Both the position numbers and the translations under genes were made by a program. A stretch of DNA of 64,000 bases from an uncultured Chloroflexia bacterium (lineage in GTDB: Bacteria; Chloroflexota; Limnocylindria; Limnocylindrales; CSP1-4): the NCBI GenBank assembly GCA_963804575.1, contig CAWDQY010000007.1, positions 144,411 through 208,410 on the forward strand. The letters are read 5' to 3'. This document shows positions 4,792-61,999 of this stretch, one piece after another. Each line of letters begins with the position of its first letter. Positions within the stretch are counted from its first letter, which is position 1. The notes beneath the pieces were generated by a model that saw only the letters and a program-made list of their open reading frames with translations, made no database searches and was not told the origin of the DNA.

Positions 4792-6123
4792 CTAATCGTC
4801 AGCGTCCCGGTCGCCATCATCGTCCGGCGGCGTGTAGACCACGTGGACGGTGCGGACACGACGGCCGTCGGTCGACTCCACGGTGAGCTTCAGGCCATCG
4901 ACCTCGACGGTGTCGCCCACCTCTGGCACGCCACCGATGTGGTGGTAGACGAGTCCGCCGACGGTGTCGAACTCCGCCTGGTCATCGCCGTCGAGCGAGG
5001 TGCCGAAGTGCTCCAGCATGTCGTCCACGTCGGCCCGGCCATCGATGCGCGCCTCGACGTCGCCCAGCGGGACGATCATGGGCTCCTCCTCGTCGTACTC
5101 GTCCTGGATCTCGCCCACGATCTCCTCGAGCAGGTCCTCGATGGTGATGAGGCCGGCCGTGCCACCGTGCTCATCGAGCACGACGGCGATGTGAACGCGT
5201 CGGCGCTGCAGGCTTCGCAGCAGGTCGTCCACCAGCATCGACTCGGGTACGAACAGGGGCGTGCGCAGGAGCCGGCGGATCGACGGTGGCCGGTCGTCGC
5301 CGACGAGGTACGGCAGCAGGTCCTTGGCATAGAGCATGCCGATGATGTTGTCGATGTTGTCTTCGTAGACCGGGATGCGCGAGTGGCCCTCGCTGACGAT
5401 GGTCTCGACGATCTCGCCCAATGCGGCGTCGACCGCCAGCGTGACCATGTCCACGCGGGCGACCATCACCTCGTGGGCACGCTGGTCGCCGAGCTCCAGC
5501 ACCGCCCCGATCATCTGCTCCTCCTCGGCTTCGATGGTGCCCTGCTCGGTGCCGCGCTCCACGAGGATGCGCAGCTCCTCGCTGGTGATGGCCTCATCGT
5601 TCATGTCGCGCACGCCGAGCAGGCGCGTCACCAGGTGGGTGGTGCTGGTCAGCAGCCACACCAACGGGGAGAGGATGACACCGAGCACCTCCACGGGGCG
5701 AGCCAGGGCGAGCGAGTAGCGCTCGGCGTGGGCCAGGGCGAGCGTCTTCGGCACCAGCTCGCCGAAGACGATGGTGACGAGGCTGACGACGAGGGTCACC
5801 ACGAGGAGCGCGAGGACATCGGCCGAGGTCGTGAGGGGGCCGATCTTGCGGAACGAATCGGCCAGCTCACCGGCGATGCTGGCACCGGCGAACGCGGCGG
5901 CAAGGAAGCCGATGAAGGTGATGCCCAGCTGGATGGTGGCCAGCAGGCGGCCGGGTCGTTCGATCATGCGCCCCACTCGCCTGGCCCGCCGGTCACCCTC
6001 GTCGGTGAGCTGGCGGATGCGGCTGCGGCGCACGGTGACGAGTGCGATCTCGGCCGCCACGAAGACGGCGTTGACCGCGATCAGCAGGGCGATGACGAGG
6101 ACCTCGACGACGGAGCTGCCCAT
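4792..6123 (-). CDS. CNNM/CorC-family transporter (DUF21 transmembrane domain + CBS pair + CorC_HlyC domain; 'hemolysin-like' Mg/Co efflux family)
   Basis: 443 aa. The N-terminal hydrophobic DUF21 region 'VLVIALLIAVNAVFVAAEIALV' and the domain order are typical. Its start overlaps the glmU stop by 1 nt (TGATG). Confidence 0.85.
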   Translation of the reverse strand: MGSSVVEVLVIALLIAVNAVFVAAEIALVTVRRSRIRQLTDEGDRRARRVGRMIERPGRLLATIQLGITFIGFLAAAFAGASIAGELADSFRKIGPLTTSADVLALLVVTLVVSLVTIVFGELVPKTLALAHAERYSLALARPVEVLGVILSPLVWLLTSTTHLVTRLLGVRDMNDEAITSEELRILVERGTEQGTIEAEEEQMIGAVLELGDQRAHEVMVARVDMVTLAVDAALGEIVETIVSEGHSRIPVYEDNIDNIIGMLYAKDLLPYLVGDDRPPSIRRLLRTPLFVPESMLVDDLLRSLQRRRVHIAVVLDEHGGTAGLITIEDLLEEIVGEIQDEYDEEEPMIVPLGDVEARIDGRADVDDMLEHFGTSLDGDDQAEFDTVGGLVYHHIGGVPEVGDTVEVDGLKLTVESTDGRRVRTVHVVYTPPDDDGDRDADD

Positions 6124-7523
6124 CAGCGTTCGGGAGCATCCTCCGGGCGGACCGAGTCGGGCGACGGGTGCAGCTTGCGGACGTACGGCCGAGCCGGTAC
6201 GCCCAGCACCACTTCGCCGTCGGGCACGTCGCGCGTGACCAGCGAGGCGGCCCCGGTGAAGGCGCCCTCGCCGATGCTCACGGGGGCCCGCATGATGGTG
6301 TCGGAGCCGATGAAGGCGCCGTTGCCGATGTGCGTGCGATGCTTGTGCACCCCGTCGTAGTTGGCGGTGATGGAGCCCGCACCGATGTTCACGCGCTCGC
6401 CCACGTCGGCATCACCGAGGTAGCTGAAGTGGTGGCTCTTGGTGCCGGCGCCGATGTGGCTGTTCTTCACCTCGGCATAGTTGCCCAGCTCGACATGGGG
6501 GCCGATGTGGGCGTCCTTGCGCACGTGCGAGAAGGGGCCGATGGTCACGTCTGACTCGACGACCGAGCCCTCCAGCACGCTGGCCCACACCACGGTGCGC
6601 TCGCCGATGCGCGTGTCGGAGATCTGCGAGCCGGCGCGGATGACGGCATCGCGTTCGATGACCGTGTCGCCACGCAGGATGACGCCGGGCTCGAGGGTGA
6701 CATCGGCGGCGATCTGGACCGTGGCATCGATGAAGGTGCTGGCCGGGTCCTGCATCGTCACGCCGGCGCGCATGTGCGCCTCGTTGATGCGCAGGCGCAT
6801 CTCCAGCTCGGCGTCGGCCAGCTGCACGCGGTCGTTGATGCCCAGCAGGGTGCCGTCGTCCTCGACCTCCAGGGTAGCCACCGGCCGGTCGTCCGCTCGG
6901 GCCAGCGGGATGAGCTCGGGCAGGTACAGCTCGCCCGTCACCGGGGAGGGCACGATGTCGCCGATGCGGGTTCGCAGCCAGTCGACATCGAAGGCGTACA
7001 GGCCGGCGTTGATCTCATCGATGGCAAGCTCGTCGGGCGTCGCGTCCTTGTGCTCGACGACACGGGCGATGCGCCCATCACGGCCACGCACGACGCGGCC
7101 GAGCGCCGCGGGATCGTCCATGTCCACGCTGATGAGAGCGATGGCCGCATCGTTGTCGCGACGGGCGTCGGCCAGCTCCGCCAGCAGGGAGGCGAGCCAC
7201 GAGCGGCACGTCGCCACTCAGCACGAGGATCTCGCGGACCTCGTCGGACAGCACCAGGAGCGCAGCGGAGATCGCGTCGGCGGTGCCGAGCGGCTCGGCC
7301 TGCAGCGCGAAGTCGGCGTCCTCGGCGAAGACATCGGCGATGGCCGCGACCGGCGGGCTGATGACCACGAGCGGCCTGGTCCCGGTGGCCGCGACAGCCG
7401 CGTCAAGGACGTAGGCCAGCATGGGCCGGCCACAGACGGGGTGCAACACCTTCGGCGTCATCGAGCGCATACGCGTGCCGAGCCCCGCAGCCATCACGAC
7501 CGCGGTGAGATGCTGGCGATGGT
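6123..7523 (-). CDS. glmU: Bifunctional UDP-N-acetylglucosamine pyrophosphorylase / glucosamine-1-phosphate N-acetyltransferase GlmU, frame interrupted near 7195-7210
   Basis: The N-terminal uridyltransferase part ('[14 protein letters not shown]...[10 protein letters not shown]') is in frame A (ORF 7078..7617). The rest ('[10 protein letters not shown]...GRVVRG...VVEHKDA' plus the left-handed beta-helix hexapeptide repeats) is in frame B (ORF 6123..7217). The start was guessed at the GTG at 7523. Confidence 0.85.
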
Positions 7524-7701
7524 ATGTGTTCACGTGGCGGACGGACCGCCGCAAGGTGATGGAGGCTTGTCGGGCATCAGGTAGTTGGACTGTAGGGGCG
7601 TGTCCAGCACGTGTCAAACGGTTACTGCCCGGGATGCAGCTGACCCCGCCACACCGTGGCGGGGTCAGCTGGTCGGTCTGACGATGGACCGTCAGTCGCA
7701 G

Positions 7702-8507
7702 CTAGGGAGCCGCGATGCAGATGGCAAAGGCCTGCACCGTCCAGTTGCCTGCCGGGTTGAGCCAGGTCACGTCCTCACGCACGGTCACGGACCAGGTGTC
7801 GCCATCGCTGGGCCAGTTCGAGGTGACGTTCAGCTTGGATGCGTCGTCGGCCGCGACCAGGATGTAGCCGCCTCCGATCACGTTCTTGCCGGCGGTGCAG
7901 TTCGCGACCGCGGTCTTGGGACTGCTGGTGTTGCTCGCGCTCACGGCACCAACCACACGCTCCCAACCGCTGACGCCGTCGGCGCCATCATCGCCATCGG
8001 GCCGGCAGGGCCGGCGGGGCCGGCTGGGCGCCGTCAGCGCCGGCAGGACCGGCGGGGCCTTCGGGACCGGCGGGACCCGTCAGGGCCGGCGGGACCTTCG
8101 GGGCCTTCGGCGCCGTCGGCGCCGGCAGGACCGGCGGGGCCTTCGGGGCCCTGGGCGCCATCGTCACCCGGGTTGCCCTTGGGACCCTCGGCACCGGCAG
8201 GACCGGCGGGACCCTCGGGGCCAGGGATGCCACTGGCCTCACCGGGGTCACCCTTGGGACCCTGGGGACCCATGGGGCCCTGTTCTCCACCGTTGCGGGC
8301 CCAGTGCACCGGGGTCGAGCCCGCCGGGCACTTGGCGTCGGGGTTCTGGACCGCCTTGACGTACGTCCCGCTCCCCTCCTTGATGCAGGCATGGATCAGG
8401 CTGTCGCCACCCTTGCCGGCATGCGCCAGGACGCCGGCGGCAGGCGCGACCGCGACCAGCATGGCGACACTGGCGACGACGGCGCCAACTCCTGTGATCT
8501 TCCGCAT
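7702..8507 (-). CDS. Secreted collagen-like (Gly-X-Y triple-helix repeat) protein with Cys-containing N- and C-terminal domains; reading frame broken at least twice inside the repeat
   Basis: A signal peptide '[28 protein letters not shown]' starts at the ATG at 8507. It is followed by an N-domain with two Cys and about 40 Gly-X-Y triplets ('[35 protein letters not shown]...'). Around 8030-8080 the Gly phase moves through all three frames. A C-terminal globular domain ('[38 protein letters not shown]...[10 protein letters not shown]') follows in a third frame and ends at 7702. Confidence 0.6.
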
Positions 8508-8861
8508 AGACTCGTGGACCTCACTACGGGCACCGGTCATCGAGCTGAGACGCCGATGTTTCGGGCAGGCTTGGGCAGGAGTCACTCCTGGCCAACAGCC
8601 CGCATCAAATCAGTCGCACAGATGGTGATATATAGCCGGTTCGGTGCACAGAGACGGTCGAGGCGAGCCGCCACGGTACCGCCCCCGGATCGACTGTCGG
8701 ACTCTCAGCAGCCCGATGGTCCTGTTGCAGCCGGCTGTCGCCGCCAGCGCCAACGGCTCGCATCGAGGAGCGCGGACGAGGGGCGGGCCACCGTCCCTCC
8801 GCTCAGATGCATGTGCTGCGACCCCGCTCCTCGAAACGTTGGGCCTCAGGTGGGCGGCTGT

Positions 8862-9902
8862 GCTAGACGGATCGACGGCTGGCCGTGGGTCGGCGAGGTC
8901 CACGGTCCCCGCCAGGACGTCTTCGCGGAGGATGCGCAGCATTCGCCCGGGTTCCTCGAACAGCGGGCTGTGTGCGGAGTGAGCGAAGGTGTAGAAGCCG
9001 GCCAGGGGAGCCTGCAACGACGTGGCGTACTGCCTGGCCAGCTGGTAGGAGACCGTATGGTCGTGGACGCCGTGAAGGAGATACGCCGGCAGTTCAAGAC
9101 GGGTCACCTGCTGGGTCACGTCGGTGGCCTGCATGCGGTCCCACAGGCCGGACCGTCGCGAGAAGCGCTTGCCGCGCCAGAGATCCAGCTTCTCGCGAAG
9201 CGTGTACTCGGGGGCTATCAGCGACGGCAAGAAGAGGCCAGTGACGACCGACCGCATCTGTCGCGTGGTGCCGACTCCGAGGCCATGCATGGCCTTGTCC
9301 CGCAACGCCTCGTACACAGGCGGCAGCGGAACGGTCAAGGGCAACGGCACGCTCTCCAGCCGCCTCACCATGCGCCGGTCGCCGCGCTCCCGGTAGCGCC
9401 GGAGCATGTACTCGTAGCTCAATCGCTCCGACCGGATCTGGTGCGTGATCTGGGCGACGCCGATGTAGGCGCAGAACCGGGAAGGCTCCTGAGCAGCCAG
9501 CTGGATGCCCAGGTACGATCCCCAGGAGTGGCCCATGAGGTAGATCCTCTGCTGGGCGAAACGACGGCGCAGGTAGTCGGTGACCTCGACGGCGTCAGCG
9601 ATGAAGTGCTCGAGCGTCATCGTCTCGGGCGGGATGTCAGGCCGGTACGAGATGGCTGTACCCCGCTGCTCCCACCATGCCACGGTGAAGTGTCGCTCGA
9701 GACCGGTCGGGTAACGCCGATCCAGCCAGAACGCCGGCATCCCGGGACCACCGTGCAGGAAGAGCAGGACGGGATTGGCCGAGTCACGGCTCTGGATGAA
9801 CATCCCCTGCTCCAGGCCGTTGATGAAGACGCGCAACTTCTCCAGGCGGTGCCCGCGCGCCTGCGCCCGGTTCCGCTCGACGTGCCGGCTGTCGAAGCGC
9901 AA
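8862..9902 (-). CDS. Alpha/beta-hydrolase, proline iminopeptidase (prolyl aminopeptidase, S33) family
   Basis: 'NPVLLFLHGGPGMPAF' and the nucleophile elbow 'GHSWGS' are present. The ORF runs on to 8610 without a stop, but GC3 collapses after about 8890 ('...VDLADP'), so the true 3' end is probably near 8860-8890, likely via another indel. The end coordinate is approximate. Confidence 0.7.
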
Positions 9903-9970
9903 GCCGATGCCGTGCCGTTCAGCGCGCTGCCCACCACGGGGTCCAGCAGCCCAGCAGGTGGTCGCGTACC

Positions 9971-10351
9971 TCAGCGCTTCTGGGCGATGACCTCGATCTC
10001 GACGCGGATGTCCATCGGCAGGCGCGCGGCCTCGATGGTGGTCCGGGCGGGATAGGGCTCCGTCATGAACGAGCCATAGACCTCGTTGAAGGCCTTGAAG
10101 TCGTCCATGTCCGCCAGGTAGCAGGTCGTCTTCACGACATCACCGAAGTCGAGACCCATCTCGCCGAGGAGCGCCTTGATGTTCTGCATCGTGCGCAACG
10201 CCTGGACGGTCACGTCGCCCTCGACGAGCGTATTGGTCTCGGGGTCCATGGGTCCCTGTCCCGAGCAGAAGACGAGCGAGTCGGTGACGATCGCCTGGCT
10301 GTAGGGGCCGATGGCATTGGGCGCCTTCGACGTCTGGATCCGCTCCTTCAC
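9971..10351 (-). CDS. ridA: RidA family reactive enamine/imine deaminase (YjgF/TdcF/UK114)
   Basis: 126 aa, 'NAIGPYSQAIVTDSLVFCSGQGPMDPETN...PARTTIEAARLPMDIRVEIEVIA'. Its ATG overlaps the ispE stop (ATGA). Confidence 0.9.
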   Translation of the reverse strand: MKERIQTSKAPNAIGPYSQAIVTDSLVFCSGQGPMDPETNTLVEGDVTVQALRTMQNIKALLGEMGLDFGDVVKTTCYLADMDDFKAFNEVYGSFMTEPYPARTTIEAARLPMDIRVEIEVIAQKR

Positions 10352-11275
10352 GAGTCTGCTCCCCTTCCGATGCTGGTCGTGGCCAAGATCGCAGCACCCT
10401 CGAGCTCGACCGGACGCTCGGACTGCAGCGTGGTCACGGCACGTTGGGCGGCTGCCTCGGAAGGATAGACCGCGAAGAGGGTCGGGCCCGACCCGGTCAG
10501 CAGCACCGAGCGGCCGAGGATGTCAGCGGCCGCCGCGTGCGCCGCGGCCAGGGCGGGCGACAGGCGCGTCGCGGGCGCCCACAGGTCGTTGGTGTCGCCC
10601 AGCCGCCGTGTCGCCGCCGCCAGGGCCGGACCGTCGATGCCGCGGCGCAGCAGCGCGGCGATCTCGTCGACACGAGCGCCGGCGCCGATGTCGCGGACGG
10701 GCTGGCGATCGAGCTCGGCGAAGACCGCGGCCGTCGAGAGTCGCTGCTGGGGTGTGATCAGCAGCAGCCCGGCGGGTGGCTCGGGCGGCGGCAAGCGGAA
10801 CGAGGCGCTCACCGATGCCCTCGACCAGGGCGGATCCGTGGGCGGAGGCGAAGAAGGGCACATCGGCGCCAAGGCGAAGCGCGAGGTCGAACCGCTCGGC
10901 GGGACCCAGCTGCACGCCCCACGCCTGCAGCGCGAGCTCGATGGCAGCCGCGGCATCGGAGCTGCCGCCGCCCAGGCCAGCCGCGGTGGGGATGCGCTTG
11001 CGCAGGCGGAACCGCAGCGCGGGCAACGAGGCACCCAGCGCCTCGCGCAGCAGCGCCGCGGCGCGCAGCACGAGGTTGTCAGCCGTGGCTTCCAGCTCGC
11101 CCTCGCTGATGAGCGAATCGACGGCCGAGGCGGGTTCGAGGTCGGCCTCCAGCACGTCATGCAGCGCCAAGCGAACGAACACCGAGCGCAGCAGGTGGTA
11201 GCCATCATCGCGGATGCCGCTGACGGCCAGGGCCAGGTTGACCTTCGCCGCTGCCTGCCGACGCCAGGCGCTCAT
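10348..11275 (-). CDS. ispE: 4-diphosphocytidyl-2-C-methyl-D-erythritol kinase IspE (GHMP kinase), frame interrupted near 10785-10800
   Basis: The N-terminal part ('AKVNLALAV...HLLRSVF...IPTAAGLGGGSSDAAAA...GADVPFF') is in one frame. The C-terminal part ('LLLITPQQ...TAAVFAELD...NDLWAPA...LTGSGPTLFAVYPS') is in the adjacent frame. The ATG at 11275 overlaps the rsmA stop. Confidence 0.85.
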
Positions 11276-12134
11276 GGCAGCGGTGTCAGGGCCTCGCGCA
11301 ATGCCAGCCACTCGTCGACCGAGAGCGTCTGCGGGCGACGGTCAAGGTCGATGGCGCAGGCTGCCAGCGCACGATCGACGCGTCCACGCTCGAGCCCGGG
11401 GAGCTGGCGAGCGAGCACGTTGTGGACCATCTTGCGGCGCTCGCGGAAGCCCGCCTGCACCAGGCGCCACAGCTCGTCCTCGGCAGCCGGCTCGAGGCGA
11501 CGTGGCGCGTCTCGCCGACCAGCACGGCCGAATCCACCTCCGGCGCCGGCTCGAAGGCAGCTGCGGGCACGCTGAAGGCGACCCGCACCTGCGCGTGGTA
11601 CTGCACGAACACCGACAGGTAGCTCATGCCACCCGCCGGCGCTGCGATGCGCTCGGCCACCTCCTTCTGCACCATCATCACGAACCGGCGGGGCCTCGGC
11701 TCGGTCCCCAGCACGTGGTGCAGGATGGGGCTGCTGATGTGGTACGGCACGTTGGCCACCAGGGCCCACGGGTCGGAGGCCACGCTCGCCAGCTCGACGT
11801 CGAGGAAGTCGGCCTCCAGCAGGGTCAGGTTCGGTTCGTCGGAGAAGCGAGCCCGCAGGTGCCCGGCCAGGCGTGCGTCAAGCTCGACCGCGGTCACGAC
11901 CGCACCGGCTGCCAGCAGCTGCGCCGTCAGGATCCCGATACCTGGGCCGACCTCCACGATGCGCTCGCCGGGCCGGATCGCGGCCACCTCGAGGATGTGC
12001 TCCAATACGGCACCGTCGGCGAGATGGTTCTGCGACAACGACTTGCGTGCGGCCAGCCAGTGGCGACGCAGATAGCGCTCGACCGCCTCGGGTCCGAGAT
12101 GCGCGGGATCAAGCTCATCGCCACTCGGGGGCAA
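11272..12134 (-). CDS. rsmA: 16S rRNA (adenine1518/1519-N6)-dimethyltransferase RsmA/KsgA, frame interrupted near 11485-11530
   Basis: The N-terminal SAM-MTase part ('SQNHLADGAVLEHIL...IVEVGPGIGILT...VANVPYHISSPIL') is in one frame. The C-terminus ('EDELWRLVQAGFRERRKMVHNVL...') is in another frame ending at 11272. Confidence 0.85.
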
Positions 12135-12138
12135 ACCG

Positions 12139-13206
12139 TCAGACCGCCAGCTTCAGCGATGGGCGCGCGTCGAGCGAGCGGTCAGCGCGGGCACCAGCGC
12201 GGTGCCGGTGGTAGCCGGCGGCGGCGATCATGGCGGCGTTGTCGGTGCACAGCCCAGGCCTCGGCACGACCAGGGGCACACCCAGGCCGGCGGCGCCGGC
12301 GGCGATGCGCTCGCGCAGCACGCCATTGGCCGCCACGCCGCCGCCGAGGACGATGGTCCTCGCGCCAAGCTCGCGGGCGGCTCGCAGGGTCTTGGTGGCG
12401 AGCACGTCGACGACCGACTCCTGGAAGGCCCAGGCCAGCTCGGCGACATCGGCCGCGGGGAGTTCGGCGCCGTCGACGTCACGGTCCTGCGCTGAACGGC
12501 CCAGGGCTTCGCCGACCGCGTGCCGCACCGCCGTCTTGAGGCCGCTGAACGAGAAGTCGTACGTGTCACCCATCCACGCTCGCGGGAAGCGCCGGTCGTG
12601 GGCGGTGGCGTCGGCGGCCGCCCGCATGATGGCCGGACCGCCCGGGTAGGAGAGGCCCAGCAGCCGGCCGACCTTGTCGAACGCCTCGCCGGCAGCGTCA
12701 TCGACGGTCTGGCCCAGCAGCCGGTAGCGCAGGTGGTCCTGCATCTCGACGAGGAAGGTGTGCCCGCCGCTCACCACCAGCGCCAGCAGGGGGAACTCCG
12801 GTGCCGGGCGCTCCTCCTGCTCGGGATCCAGCAACCAGGCCGCGTAGATGTGTCCTTCGAGGTGGTTCACCGGCACCAGCGGCAGGCCCAGGCTCCAGGC
12901 CAGCGTCTTGGCCATGGTGATGCCCACCAGCAGTGAGCCGGCCAGGCCGGGACCCTCGGTGACGGCCACGGCGTCCACATCGGACCAATCGTCGATGGCG
13001 GCTCGCGTGCGGGCCTCGTGCAGCACCGGGATCATCCAGCGCAGGTGCGCCCGTGCCGCCACCTCGGGCACGATGCCACCCGTGGCGGAGTGGAGCTGCA
13101 CCTGGCTGGCAACCACGTTGGCGACGATGCGGCGGCCTTCCTCGACCACGGCCACGGCGGTCTCATCGCAGGATGACTCCACCGCGAGGATGCGACCGCG
13201 GCTCAT
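12139..13206 (-). CDS. tsaD: tRNA N6-adenosine threonylcarbamoyltransferase TsaD (Kae1/YgjD)
   Basis: 'MSRGRILAVESSCDETAVAVV...' with the His-His metal motif region. The ATG overlaps the rimI stop. Confidence 0.9.
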   Translation of the reverse strand: MSRGRILAVESSCDETAVAVVEEGRRIVANVVASQVQLHSATGGIVPEVAARAHLRWMIPVLHEARTRAAIDDWSDVDAVAVTEGPGLAGSLLVGITMAKTLAWSLGLPLVPVNHLEGHIYAAWLLDPEQEERPAPEFPLLALVVSGGHTFLVEMQDHLRYRLLGQTVDDAAGEAFDKVGRLLGLSYPGGPAIMRAAADATAHDRRFPRAWMGDTYDFSFSGLKTAVRHAVGEALGRSAQDRDVDGAELPAADVAELAWAFQESVVDVLATKTLRAARELGARTIVLGGGVAANGVLRERIAAGAAGLGVPLVVPRPGLCTDNAAMIAAAGYHRHRAGARADRSLDARPSLKLAV

Positions 13207-18102: not shown

Positions 18103-19269
18103 TCAGTCCCTGGGGGGGGTACCGGCCAGCGGATAGTACACCCGGTCCAGACGCCGAGCCATGCCCGTGAGCACTTCCCAGGCGATGGTGTTGCGCCGAC
18201 GCGCCAGTTCCCCGGCGCTGATCCACTCGGCGCCCTGGCGACCCAGAAGCACGAACTCCTCGAGGTAGTCCAGCCCGGGCAAGTCCGTCACGTCGACCGC
18301 GACGGCGTCCATGGAGACACGCCCGACGATGGGCACTCGCCGACCTCGCACGAGTGCCATCGCCCCCGGCTGCGAGCCGCGCAGGTACCCATCCCCGTAG
18401 CCCACCGGCAGCACGGCGACGCGCGAGGGGCGTTCCGCGCGCCAGGTGCCCCCATAGCCGACGGTGCCACCGGCCGGCACGTCGCTGAAGGCAGCCGGCC
18501 GAGCCTTGAGGGCCATCGCCGGGCGCAGCCGTCCGGCGGCCTCGACGGCGTCGGGCGCGATGGGCAGGTCGGCATCCAGCACGCCGTAGACGGCGATCCC
18601 CGGGCGCACCAGGTCCAGCGACGGCTCGTCGTGCGTGAAGATGCCGCCGCTGGCGGCGATGTGGCGTGGCGGGATCGGGATGCCCGCCTCGTGCAGCGCG
18701 GTCACGGCGACCTCGAAACGAAGGACCTGGGCGTCGGACGACGGCGGGTCCTCCGGGCTGTGCAGATGTGACCACAGGCCGGCCAGCTCGATGCGTGGGT
18801 CAGCGACAGCCGCAGCGGCCACGGCGGGCACCGCCTCGGGCAACAGGCCGCCGCGACCCATGCCAGTCTCGACGCCGAGGTGGACCTTCACCGGCGGACC
18901 CGCGGTCGGGTGCCGCGGAGCGGATGGCCTCGAGGTCGGCCGCCGACATCACCGCCAGCTCCACATCGGCCGCGACCGCCTCGGCGGCGGCCGACGCCGG
19001 CGCCGGGTACAGCAGCAGGATCCGCCCGCCACGCGTGCGCGCAGCGCGATGGCCTCGTCGAGGGTGGCGACGCAGAGTGCCTCGACGTGGGGCGCCAGCG
19101 CGGGGCCGACGGCCTCGACACCGTGACCATAGGCGTCGGCCTTGACGACCGGGGCCACGGCCGCGGGGCCGACCACCGAGCGGATGACCTCGATGTTGTG
19201 GCGCATGGCGTCGAGATCGATCTCGAGCCAGGCGCCCCGGTTCCGCGGCGGCAGGAACGTGGCGGTCAT
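18103..19269 (-). CDS. alr: Alanine racemase, frame interrupted twice (near 19030-19040 and 18885-18895)
   Basis: The protein reads across three frames: the N-terminus 'AWLEIDLDAMRHNIEVIRSVV...VKADAYGHGVEAV', the middle 'GGRILLLYPAPA...VELAVMSAADLEAI', and 'VKVHLGVETGMGRGG...' through the C-terminal beta domain. The ATG at 19269 overlaps the nnrD stop. Confidence 0.85.
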
Positions 19270-48794: not shown

Positions 48795-53391
<4,597 letters not shown>

Positions 53392-53471
53392 TCAACCACA
53401 CCGTCGTCAGCGGTGCGGGATGCGCGGGTTGGACCGGAGCGGACTCCGGGTCGGTGGCCGCGACTGCTGGT

Positions 53472-56939
<3,468 letters not shown>

Positions 56940-57080
56940 GGGGCACTCCTGGCCTCAGGGAGAGGCTTTCAAGGCACGGGAATCCGACCACATGGGTCGT
57001 TGAAGGAAAAGGGGCCGCGCTCACCGACCGTGTATGGTATCGCGTCGTCCGCGGCCCGTCAACGGCGGGGAGGTCACGAA

Positions 57081-57105
57081 GAGGGAGGTCGAAGCGACCT
57101 CCCTC
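57081..57105 (-). terminator. rplL-rpoB intergenic attenuator hairpin (10-bp perfect stem gagggaggtc/gacctccctc, 5-nt loop)
   Basis: It lies 20-45 nt downstream of the rplL stop in the 185-nt rplL-rpoB spacer. This is the classic position of the partial terminator that sets the L10/L12 to RNAP ratio. Confidence 0.45.
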
Positions 57106-57124
57106 TTCCCTGAGCGGCGGTGCG

Positions 57125-57514
57125 CTACTTGATGTCGACCTTGGCGCCCTGCTCCTCGAGGGCGGCCTTGATCTTCTCCGCCTCGTCCTTGTCCACGCCT
57201 TCCTTGACCGCCTTGGGAGCGGCATCGACGAGGTCCTTGGCTTCCTTGAGGCCCAGGCCCGTCAGCTCTCGCACGACCTTGATGACGGGGATCTTGTTGG
57301 GGCCGACCTCGGACAGCACGACCTCGAACTCGGTCTGCTCTTCCTCGGCTTCGGCTGCGCCGGCATCCGCCGGGGTCGCCGCCATCGCGACCGCCGCGGG
57401 GGCAGCCGCGGTGACGCCGTAGCGCTCCTCGAAGGCCTTGATGAAGCCGGAGAGCTCAAGCACGGTCATGCCGTCGATGGCTTCGAGGATGTCTTCCTGT
57501 GTGAGTTTGGCCAT
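57125..57514 (-). CDS. rplL: 50S ribosomal protein L7/L12
   Basis: 129 aa with an Ala/Glu-rich flexible hinge. Confidence 0.95.
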
Positions 57515-57570
57515 TGGGGTGTCGTTCCTTCCGTATCGATCGTGTTGGTAGTGGTGTCGAGGGGTGCGTG

Positions 57571-58098
57571 CTAGCCGGCCTGGGCCGCTTCGCGTCGCTG
57601 CTGCAGCTGCGTCAGGCCGTAGCCCAGGTTTCGCAAGGGGGCGGCGAAGAGACCGGCCATCGTGCTCAGAGGCGCAGCCATGCCACCGGCCAGCTGGGCC
57701 AGCAGCACGTCGCGGCCGGGCAAGCGGGCAAGCGCCATGACGGCGGCGGCATCGAACGTCTGGCCGTTCATGGCAGCCCCGCGGATCTCCACCGAGAAAG
57801 GCTTGGTGGCATCCAGCAGGCCCTTCGCCAGCGAGGACTCGTCCTGGCCGCCGATGGCGATGGCGCTGGGGCCGGTGAGCAGCGGGATGAGCTCCGTGCG
57901 GCCGGCCTGTTCGGCCGCGATCCTCGCCAGTCGGTTCTTGATGACCCGGTACTGGATGTCCTTCGCGCGCAGCTCGCGGCGCACCCTGTGCAGATCAGCC
58001 ACCGACAGGCCCCGGTGATCGGAGACGATCGTCGTGGTCGCCTCCTTGAGGAGCTCGGTGAGCTCCGCCACGGTCGCCTGCTTGGCTTGTGTGGGCAT
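57571..58098 (-). CDS. rplJ: 50S ribosomal protein L10
   Basis: The ATG at 58098 is preceded by a strong SD 'GGAAAGGAGG'. '[43 protein letters not shown]'. The upstream in-frame extension in the ORF track is non-coding leader. Confidence 0.9.
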
Positions 58099-58411
58099 GT
58101 GACCTCCTTTCCCTGGGAGCGACGCGGATGCGACGATCCCCTGTGTGTCCCGCACAGGAGCATCGTTCGCTGCGACGCGCAGCTCCGGACGGAGGTCCGG
58201 TTCGACACCTGCCTTGGCGTGCCCGTCGTCGTCCCCGCACGAGGCGGTCCGTGCGACGATTTCGGTCCGGTCCGACGAGCCGATACGCTCGGCTCGCGGC
58301 GCGGAAGCCTCCTGGCTTCCCGGACGCATCGCTGTCTCTGGCGGAACTCTCTTCGTTTCGACGGGAAGCGCCCCGTCAACGCTGTGATGCGGGCCTGGCA
58401 GCCCGCGGCCC
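58099..58411 (-). promoter_or_regulatory. rplJ 5' leader region (candidate L10(L12)4 autoregulatory leader + promoter)
   Basis: A 313-nt non-coding spacer lies between the rplA stop and the rplJ start. L10-leader elements are known at this position in actinobacteria. The structure has not been folded here. Confidence 0.45.
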
Positions 58412-59116
58412 TCAGGCGGCGAGCGCCAGCAGGCCCGGGACGTCCACGCGGATGCCGGGGCCCATGGTGGACGCGACGGTGAGGCTCTTGAAGTACTGGC
58501 CCTTGACCTCCTTGGGTCGGGCGCGGTTGATGGCGTCGGTCAGGGCGGCGAGGTTGTCGAGCAGCTGGGCCGGCTCGAAGCCGGACTTGCCGAAGGCCAC
58601 GTGGATGATGCCGCCCTTGTCGACCTTGAACTCGATGCGGCCGCCCTTGAGCTCGTTGACGACCTGTTCGATGTCGAAGGTGACGGTGCCGGCCTTGGGA
58701 TTCGGCATCAGGCCACGACGGCCGAGGATGCGGCCGAGCTTGCCCACGCGGCCCATCATGTCGGGCGTGGCCACGGCCACGTCGAACTCCAGCCAGCCAC
58801 CCTCGATCTTCTCGGCGAGGTCATCCGCGCCCACCACGTCGGCGCCGGCGGCACTGGCCTCGGCCGCCTTGTCGCCCTGGGCGAAGACGGCGACCCGGAC
58901 GACCTTGCCGCTGCCGTGCGGCAGCGAGACGGTGCCGCGCACCATCTGCTCGGCATGCCGGGGGTCGACACCCAGGCGGATATGGGCCTCGACGGAGGAC
59001 TCGAACTTGGTGGTGGCGGTCTGCTTCAGCAGCGCCATCGCCTCCTCGGGCAGGTAGGTCCTGCCATCCTCGACGAGTGCGGCTGCTTCCTGGTATCGCT
59101 TTCCGTGTTTGCCCAT
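58412..59116 (-). CDS. rplA: 50S ribosomal protein L1
   Basis: The ATG at 59116 has a 'GAAAGGGA' SD. '[38 protein letters not shown]'. Confidence 0.9.
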
Positions 59117-59248
59117 GTGGCGGATCCCTTTCACTGCGGCCGCGAGCGGCCTGCCCCTGGCGACGCGGGGTCGACGTGCCGGTGAGTGCGGCGCGCGGCC
59201 GCGCTCAGCTCCGTCCGGCCCGGCTGGCGGGCGGAGCCTGCGCTGGTG

Positions 59249-59677
59249 CTAGTCGACGATCTCGATGCCCATGGAGCGGGCGGTTCCGGCGATGACGCGC
59301 GCCGCCATCTCGGGATCGTGGGAGTTGAGGTCGGACTTCTTGATCTCGGCGATCTCGAGCAGCTGGGCTCGCGTGACGCTGCCAACGTAGGTTCCCCGGC
59401 CGGTCGCGCCGGAGCCGCGTTCGACACCGGCTGCCTTGCGCAGCAGGTCGGCTGCCGGTGGCGTCTTGAGGATGAAGGTGAAGCTGCGGTCCTCGAAGAT
59501 GGTGATCTGGGCAGGGATGATCTGTCCGCTCTGGGCAGCCGTGCGCTCGTTGTAGGTCTTGGTGAACTCGACGATGTTGATGCCATGGGGACCCAGCGCG
59601 GTGCCCACGGGCGGAGCCGGCGTGGCCTTTCCGGCGGGCAGCTGCAGGGTCAGGACGGTGCGGATCTTCTTGGCCAT
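59249..59677 (-). CDS. rplK: 50S ribosomal protein L11
   Basis: '[35 protein letters not shown]'. Confidence 0.95.
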
Positions 59678-59725
59678 CGGTTCGTCTCGTTCTACCTCGT
59701 TGTCGTCAGGGTGCCGGTCGCGTGG

Positions 59726-60307
59726 CTAGAGCTTCTCGACCTGCAGGAAGTCCAGCTCGACGGGCGTCTCGCGCCCGAAGATGCTGACCAGGACCTTGAG
59801 CTTGTTGCGCTCGGGATTGACCTCGTCGACGGTGCCGATGAACTCGGCGAAGGGACCGTCGGTGACGCGCACGGACTGGCCCTTGGTGAAGGCGACGCGG
59901 TACTTGGGCGTCTCGACGCCCATCTGGCGCAGGATCTGCTTGACCTCGTGCTCCTCGAGGGGCACCGGCTCGTTGCGGGAGCCGGGGATGTTGCCGCCTC
60001 CGACGAAGCTGGTGACGCCGGGCGTGTTGCGCACCACGAACCACGATTCGGGGTCGAGGATCATCTCGACGAGCACGTAGCCGGGGAAGACCTTCTTCTG
60101 CACGGTGACACGCTGGCCGCCGCGGATCTCGATCTCATCCTCTTCGGGCACGAGGACCTGGTAGATCTTGTCTTCCATGCCCATCGTCTCGATGCGGTGC
60201 TCGAGGTTGGTCTTGACCTTCTTCTCGTAGCCCGAATAGGTGTGGATGACGTACCAACGCTTCTCCGGCTGCGCCGATTCGGTCAGGTGCTCCAGGAAGC
60301 TGGTCAT
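59726..60307 (-). CDS. nusG: Transcription termination/antitermination factor NusG
   Basis: NGN domain '[16 protein letters not shown]' plus a C-terminal KOW. Confidence 0.95.
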
Positions 60308-60498
60308 CTAGAAGATGTCCGTGATGAGGCGCAGGACGGTGGTCCAGACCAGTCGAAGAACGCGATGTAGACCCCGAAGATGCCGCTGATCACGAAGACC
60401 AGGACGGTCAGGTTGCGGACATGCTCCCGCGTGGGCCATGTCACCTTCTTCAGTTCTGACCAGGACTCGGTGAAGTATTGGCGGATCCGTCGGATCAC
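60304..60498 (-). CDS. secE: Preprotein translocase subunit SecE
   Basis: GTG start at 60498 (the longer ORF would run into tRNA-Trp). '[49 protein letters not shown]'. Confidence 0.85.
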
Positions 60499-60537
60499 AG
60501 TTCTCTTCGGTGCCTCATCTGGGGCTGGTTGCGGGGG

Positions 60538-60614
60538 TGGCAGGCGCGGCGGGACTCGAACCCACAACCCCTGGTTTTGGAGACCAGTGCTCTGCCAAAT
60601 TGAGCTACGCGCCT
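60538..60614 (-). tRNA. tRNA-Trp (anticodon CCA), CCA end encoded
   Basis: Manual fold: acceptor AGGCGCG/CGCGCCT, D-arm GCTC...GAGC, anticodon loop CTCCAAA, T-arm GGTTCGAGTCC. Confidence 0.85.
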
Positions 60615-60631
60615 ACGTTCTTGCTTCGGCT

Positions 60632-60796
60632 CTACTTGCTCTCGCGGTGAAGTGTATGACTTCGACAGCGAGGGCAGTAGCGGCGAAGCTCGATGCGGCT
60701 GGGATCGTTCTTCTTGTTCTTCTCCGTCGTGTACGTGCGCTCCCGGCATTCGGTGCACGCGAGCGTGATGACGGGTCGATTTACGGCTTTTGCCAC
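60632..60796 (-). CDS. rpmG: 50S ribosomal protein L33 (zinc-ribbon C+ form, 54 aa)
   Basis: GTG start. '[54 protein letters not shown]'. It falls below the ORF-track size cutoff. Confidence 0.9.
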
Positions 60797-60802
60797 TTCA
60801 GT

Positions 60803-61999
<1,197 letters not shown>

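Follow-up and report, generated by a model that had tools for sequence, protein, structure and literature searches.

In Bacillus, the C-terminal domain of BclA is a C1q/TNF-like jelly roll. Among the streptococcal collagen-like proteins, Scl2 is frame-switched by CAAAA repeats located just after its start codon (PMC5005324). Small-indel frameshifts are also a documented artifact of long-read genome and metagenome assemblies (10.1101/2021.08.23.457338; PMC9262707), and their correction is the purpose of proovframe and similar tools (10.1101/2021.08.23.457338; PMC9262707; PMC12007338). Here, we analyzed a collagen-like gene whose Gly-X-Y repeat is spread over three reading frames, within a window of 64 kb (the whole stretch of DNA that was analyzed). 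As judged by comparison with related sequences, its three frame jumps are very likely small indel errors in the assembled consensus.

The locus is a single gene on the minus strand and encodes a secreted collagen-like protein of ~267 amino acids. From the ATG at 8507 to the TAG at 7704 to 7702, it spans 806 nt (2 mod 3), and it was resolved into the following features:

8519 to 8522, minus strand: Shine-Dalgarno-like GAGG, 11 nt 5' of the ATG (sequence reading)
8418 to 8507, minus strand: predicted signal peptide, M1 to A30, with cleavage after AHA (read by eye)
8289 to 8417, minus strand: two-Cys N-module, G31 to N73 (~43 aa), with C41, G47, C60, and W69 invariant in alignments
8079 to 8288, minus strand: collagen segment 1, frame 1, with 6 + 17 Gly-X-Y triplets around GEA-S-GIP
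8024 to 8077, minus strand: collagen segment 2, frame 2 (sequence reading)
7999 to 8021, minus strand: collagen segment 3, frame 1, GPAGPAG and a truncated codon (CC-)
7705 to 7998, minus strand: final collagen triplets (GDD GAD GVS), then the all-beta C-domain with its two Cys, frame 0
7702 to 7704, minus strand: stop codon TAG (sequence reading)

The anatomy proposed in an earlier note on this DNA, namely, a signal peptide, a two-Cys N-domain, a collagen tract, and a two-Cys C-domain, was recovered in full at these coordinates. For the tract, which had been put at ~40 triplets, we count ~36 Gly-X-Y triplets after repair of the frame. Two homologues with the full architecture, one in an Illumina-based MAG of Ca. 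Limnocylindrales (L010) and one in a Chloroflexia MAG (L006), occupy single open frames of 295 and 326 codons, respectively. Their N termini (MQKLTRAGAVV in L010 and MKRLGSAAAVL in L006) back ATG 8507 as the start. Both also conserve the AHAG motif of the signal peptide. In the window gene, this peptide was recognized by eye: the n-region is basic, the hydrophobic core spans ~20 residues, and A-H-A, with G next to it, forms the motif for cleavage. The collagen run contains one natural 1-residue interruption (GEA-S-GIP), and the form GEASG(I/V)PG is common to the window gene and L010. The C-domain comprises ~85 aa with two Cys, and the protein terminates in AICIAAP.

On the basis of a long Gly-X-Y run that scores above the threshold of Pfam PF01391, we classify the product as a bacterial collagen-like protein; the repaired protein reached 56.1 bits and the unrepaired frame-1 ORF 38.7 bits, against a cut-off of 27.2. 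Scores for the NCBIfam equivalogs of Scl1/Scl2 (NF038329, 67.2 bits versus 325; NF038330, 58 versus 400) and of Legionella Lcl (NF046116, 56 bits versus a cut-off of 500) fell well below the values required, and an LPXTG sorting signal is absent from the protein sequence.

Read on the minus strand, the Gly-X-Y register lies in frame 1 from 8288 to 8079, in frame 2 from 8077 to 8024, once more in frame 1 from 8021 to 8001, and in frame 0 from 7998 onward. This A to B to A to C pattern reproduces exactly the three phase shifts that had been reported for the tract. The register is lost at three sites:

8076 to 8078, minus strand: break 1, GGG for the expected GG in GAC-GGG-TCC, +1 nt
8022 to 8023, minus strand: break 2, a stray CC between CAG and GGC, -1 nt or +2 nt
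7998 to 7999, minus strand: break 3, a base absent from GGC-CC^GAT, -1 nt

Breaks 1 and 3 amount to the wrong length of a G run and a C run, respectively, and repair by three single-site edits yielded a complete ORF with a clean protein of 267 to 268 aa. Alignments of three relatives (L003, L004, and L005) show one surplus window base at break 1, the only in-frame references for breaks 1 and 2 being relatives at ~86% nucleotide identity or less. TRF gave a 46-nt period over 8008 to 8150, where the expected collagen unit is 45 nt (15 aa). A GC3 frame plot was too noisy to place frameshifts, and profile-coverage tests were used in its stead. Three breaks within 85 nt, compared with at least five other indels in ~63 kb, correspond to a Poisson P of ~5e-8 when a uniform background is assumed. 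As this density is far above uniform chance, the clustering is real, and the collagen tract is an error hot spot.

Profile coverage further showed that four housekeeping genes are frame-broken within the 64 kb. In glmU (6123 to 7617, minus strand), which lies directly downstream of the collagen-like gene, NCBIfam positions 2 to 106 are encoded by the ORF at 7078 to 7617 and positions 108 to 447 by the ORF at 6123 to 7217. For rpoC (48798 to 53391, minus strand), TIGR02386 positions 1 to 532 fall in 50551 to 53391 and those from 546 onward in 48798 to 51167, with a break at ~51100 to 51200. The gene for rsmA/ksgA (11289 to 12152, minus strand) matches profile positions 2 to 184 in one frame and has its C-terminal 60 residues (195 to 255) shifted, the break lying at ~11510. 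Finally, alr (18106 to 19269, minus strand) covers profile positions 2 to 71, then a shifted middle (RILLLYPAP...), and then positions 120 to 367 back in the first frame; the frame thus hops twice within ~110 nt of nonrepetitive DNA, near 19030 and 18930. RpoC and GlmU are indispensable for cell survival; therefore, the frame breaks in their genes must be technical. Both of these breaks lie outside homopolymers, so that the error profile is not purely homopolymer linked. The alr gene shows that indel errors in this assembly form local clusters even without repeats, and the clustering of breaks in the collagen tract reflects clustered errors of the same kind rather than biology.

Two other cases were also considered. 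The missing N-terminal half of nnr/yjeF was rejected as a further frameshift, since it proved to be a separate acpS gene. The alpha/beta-hydrolase ORF at 8610 to 9902 (minus strand) has a C-terminal extension of ~100 aa past its Pfam domain that is of low complexity and looks noncoding, and another indel may have deleted its true stop codon.

An independent view of this region was provided by a Logan short-read contig (L002), which is 96.5% identical to window positions 8018 to 6770 over 1,238 nt. The extra C that breaks glmU is missing from this contig, and its position at ~7194 coincides with the shift site predicted from the profile hand-over:

7193 to 7195, minus strand: glmU control break, +1 C, window GGCTCGCC versus GGCTGCC in L002

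The short-read contig ends at window position 8018 and so reaches break 3 but not breaks 1 and 2; across the site of break 3, it reads from the collagen run into the C-domain in one frame, and the window differs from it there by one extra triplet minus 1 nt. We favor assembly error because housekeeping genes of the same window are broken and because L002 carries neither the glmU break nor break 3. Essential genes on this contig thus share in the breaks, which a near-identical independent assembly lacks, the pattern of an assembly artifact, and the first of two explanations offered by the earlier note is borne out by glmU, rpoC, rsmA, and alr together with the intact short-read contig. Indel errors of this type are typical of long-read or poorly polished assemblies, in which they tend to concentrate in GC-rich tandem repeats. 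The 9/45-nt repeat, whose copy number may in addition vary in the sampled population, is a classic site of consensus errors.

More distant relatives were consistent with this explanation. In L003, L004, and L005 (83 to 86% nucleotide identity), up to 95 residues of uninterrupted Gly-X-Y lead straight into the C-domain. A scan of species-representative genomes returned 19 homologous loci, and full-architecture homologues were found as single ORFs in L010, L006, and more than 10 others. Every short-read homologue lies in a single frame. One homologue is itself broken, in the order 0 to 2 to 0 to 1; its Gly-X-Y triplets are divided into groups of 27 and 19 that differ in frame, and gene calls nearby are fragmentary. 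This homologue is located at 9250 to 10441 of a Flye-style contig (L001, ERZ25039555 contig_999). With short-read relatives in frame and the long-read-style L001 broken, the frame breaks track assembly type and not lineage.

Database entries for these relatives raise a different reading, according to which the locus would comprise two or more small genes, a secreted collagen-like peptide (8507 to 8034) and a separate 84-aa C-domain protein (7956 to 7702). Many homologues are indeed called as C-domain-only ORFs of 70 to 90 aa with an upstream ORF that overlaps by 4 nt, and the C-domains of L002 to L005 are deposited in this way, as separate proteins of 80 to 90 aa with the same 4-nt overlap. 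When L002 to L005 are translated directly, however, the collagen run passes into GVSGWERV without leaving its frame, which refutes this reading for these contigs. Full-length single ORFs exist in many MAGs, and the reading is the least credible of those weighed here. The frame being continuous on direct translation, the split calls were also rejected as a conserved frame break. In L002 to L005 and many relatives from the word search, they are a gene-caller artifact of GC-rich DNA that is open in all three frames. Split C-domain calls typically appear as a "hypothetical protein" of 70 to 90 aa whose GTG start overlaps the TGA of the wrong-frame upstream ORF.

The other explanation put forward in the earlier note, an inactivated or phase-variable surface protein, gained no positive support, as the tract carries three separate lesions of ~1 nt and no switchable tract, and the short-read relatives are single frame. 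A genuine strain-specific pseudogene, in which real 1-nt indels in the collagen tract inactivated a dispensable surface protein independently of any errors in other genes, appears unlikely. Repeat tracts are prone to indels, accessory surface proteins are often lost, and three lesions per 85 nt exceed the window background by orders of magnitude. However, alr has like clustering (two hops) in nonrepetitive DNA, and since rpoC, glmU, alr, and rsmA are broken in ways that cannot be real, a technical cause is already shown and suffices. If true slippage had acted on a 9- or 45-nt repeat, one would expect the gain or loss of whole units, in frame, and not of single bases. The start, signal peptide, N-module, C-domain, and stop are undamaged, and the C-domain behind the breaks is still ~94% identical to P0001 (from L002), apparently the intact copy of the closest relative. 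Although the broken homologue in L001 could be read as recurrent loss, that contig is a long-read-style assembly in which many adjoining genes are fragmentary. A further and less likely reading takes the collagen tract for a true hot spot of mutation by which such genes have been repeatedly inactivated, as in the window and L001.

Regulated frame switching, whether at a phase-variable locus of the Scl2 type or by programmed ribosomal frameshifts, is very improbable. Scl2 sets a precedent for frame control of a collagen-like adhesin (PMC5005324), but the present tract lacks a simple-sequence stretch whose unit length is indivisible by three: TRF gave periods of only 9 and 45/46 nt, and no phase-switch tract was found. 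Three separate lesions, moreover, would not be reversible by one slip. No slippery heptamer was noticed when the break sites were read by eye. The frame changes are not conserved, the short-read homologues all being single ORFs, and since programmed frameshifting requires conservation, it is excluded. Small indel errors in the consensus are the explanation that we adopt in what follows.

The repaired gene was then considered in its surroundings, where two signals separate it from glmU:

7637 to 7671, minus strand: perfect 16-bp GC-rich hairpin past the stop codon, RNA fold of -48.9 kcal/mol, z = -5.45
7589 to 7617, minus strand: sigma-70-like promoter match TTGACA-17-TACAGT, glmU's own, beyond the hairpin

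The hairpin is terminator-like without a U-tract and sits between the collagen-like gene and glmU; for want of a T-run, a scan for consensus terminators gave no match. With this hairpin and a promoter match belonging to glmU itself, the gene resembles an independent transcription unit surrounded by housekeeping genes and not part of a prophage. Chloroflexota MAGs supply the closest homologues of the gene; flanking synteny of the window with L010 and L006 was not seen outside the gene. As a side observation, an Actinomycetota MAG locus (L017, 1 to 19854) carries a collagen-like homologue inside an rplA/rplJ/rplL-rpoB-rpoC neighborhood, and the corresponding cluster of the window (51652 to 60929) lies ~45 kb from the collagen-like gene.

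The N-module directly precedes the collagen run. In 11 full-length members, its residues C41, G47, C60, and W69 do not vary, and the same holds for the MAG loci, where L010 and L006 share the pattern H-A-C-I...K-C-P. The AF2 model of the module was poor (pLDDT 58), with three short beta-strands predicted. A word-based homology search with the N-domain returned no homologue, and its conservation emerged through full-length relatives recovered with the C-domain. A metagenome scan with the N-domain found two partial loci only (L025 and L026) and no close-relative assembly spanning the whole tract. In L026 (1969 to 2448 of Ga0137390_10134876), the two-Cys N-module (GLIHACYKDGNGDLRVVSDPSSCRAHETPI) stands directly ahead of a noncollagen domain, from which it follows that the module is independent and not merely a collagen cap. 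In the other locus, L025 (2201 to 2392 of Ga0316578_10052338), which is L006-like, the frame changes after the signal-peptide end (AHAGKGGSG), and the next element resembles the start of a C-domain, AWSADDESDKSVTAVCPA, without an intervening collagen run. The locus may represent a variant that lacks the collagen run or one more broken copy located where a contig ends.

The C-domain was modeled with confidence by AF2 (pLDDT 93.2, pTM 0.82) as a fold of six beta-strands. Its profile, seeded with the window sequence, follows the pattern GVSGWE...C..G....GGG...P...TW...AYA.C. A word search retrieved at least 165 related proteins. The closest members are 94%, 81%, and 76% identical; the best match in a species-representative genome was 60% identical. 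An exhaustive profile search returned 5,916 cluster representatives at an E value of <=1e-3, of which 973 were at <=1e-10, and the domain ranges over Chloroflexota, Actinomycetota, Acidobacteriota, and CPR. Given these numbers and the recurrence of the tripartite architecture in at least four phyla, the view that such collagen-like proteins are uncommon was not upheld, whereas the statement that they are poorly characterized held: no Pfam or NCBIfam family model matches the C-domain, and a PDB sequence search found no solved relative. Loss of the signal peptide or the C-domain from homologues had been named as a point against the call, and both are retained in them. The gene thus belongs to a widespread family of bacterial collagen-like proteins for which the C-domain has no family model.

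In a fold search of the PDB, the C-domain model had no significant match, the best being the tailspike of phage phi297 (E = 0.087); other matches included the R2 pyocin and AP22 tail fibers, and the entries 4ru5, 6ct8, and 4mtm were at E values of >=0.087. Matches in BFVD were to distal domains of phage tail fibers and to H-type-lectin-like domains (E values of 4e-4 to 1e-2, TMq 0.45 to 0.64); these model-based matches are marginal but consistent. A relationship to Dr-family adhesins (PF04619) was rejected because the scores of 22.2 and 20.9 bits fall short of the cut-off (23.6) and because the 50 best PDB fold matches listed include none of the Dr/Afa adhesins. Similarity to a Kelch blade in the PDB sequence search was weak and repeat-summed and was judged spurious. 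The window C-domain matched no PHROG family; PHROG matches that arose in the family search each came from a single member, probably via its collagen sequence and not its C-domain, and were set aside. Elsewhere, the domain occurs as 3 to 7 tandem copies in proteins of 300 to 550 aa without Pfam annotation (P0124, P0159, and others), P0124 consisting of six consecutive Cys-bracketed modules with no Pfam match, and it follows collagen stalks that carry CBM96 or CBM5/12 heads (P0147 and P0164).

A working model of the protein can be proposed from these parts. The precursor would be exported by the Sec pathway and cleaved after AHA, and three chains would then join, with the ~36 Gly-X-Y triplets forming a triple-helical stalk. 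Collagen geometry allots ~0.29 nm to each residue, so that ~108 residues give a length of ~30 nm. Lacking hydroxyproline, such a stalk would be stabilized by the high content of Pro at the X position and by pairs of Glu/Asp with Lys. It would present the six-strand beta-sandwich, presumably bracketed by a disulfide, as a distal knob for binding or for trimerization and nucleation, and the small two-Cys N-module may cap or register the opposite end. Trimerization, the disulfides, a role at the surface or in a fiber, and the binding of any ligand are inferred only. We would go one step further only tentatively, and with considerable doubt: the gene could be part of a large, uncharacterized class of secreted fibers, built from a collagen stalk and a disulfide-bracketed knob of tail-fiber or lectin-like type, that serves as a widespread apparatus for adhesion or glycan binding in Chloroflexota, Actinomycetota, Acidobacteriota, and CPR.

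The main value of the locus is one of caution, in that a collagen repeat read in three frames points to a problem of assembly quality and not to biology; in the same window, rpoC, glmU, alr, and rsmA would likewise be mistaken for pseudogenes. Gene callers, in turn, routinely split high-GC collagen-like genes, and many "hypothetical proteins" of 70 to 90 aa are C-domains of longer proteins. The C-domain is a confidently predicted, widespread fold that could be made into a family model. If the family were characterized, bacterial collagens would be extended beyond Firmicutes and pathogens to uncultured lineages of soil and freshwater.

Compared with known cases, the frame jumps resemble long-read assembly artifacts in that scattered 1-nt indels split conserved genes into adjacent ORFs, some of them in homopolymers, and differ in that two housekeeping-gene indels of the window lie outside homopolymers. 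With the streptococcal proteins Scl1 and Scl2, the product shares secretion and a collagen-like region, the weak profile similarity being confined to the Gly-X-Y part; unlike them, it has no LPXTG motif, wall-spanning region, V-domain, or CAAAA-type switch tract. The plan shared with proteins of the Bacillus BclA type is a short N-terminal part followed by a Gly-X-Y stalk and a compact, distal, all-beta C-domain. Here, however, two Cys bracket a C-domain that forms a sandwich of six strands, and neither C1q nor BclA structures were among its top 50 PDB fold matches listed; the gene also lacks an exosporium context, and its Gly-X-Y triplets are rich in Pro, Ala, Glu, and Asp and not in Thr. Collagen-like phage tail fibers are likewise built from a collagen-like shaft and a small tip of beta-sandwich fold and supply the best, if marginal, fold matches of the C-domain, whereas the window gene has a Sec signal peptide and is neighbored by glmU, a hydrolase gene, and RidA in place of phage genes. 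The protein is a member of none of these groups, and its layout is analogous to that of BclA, C1q-type proteins, and collagen-like phage fibers.
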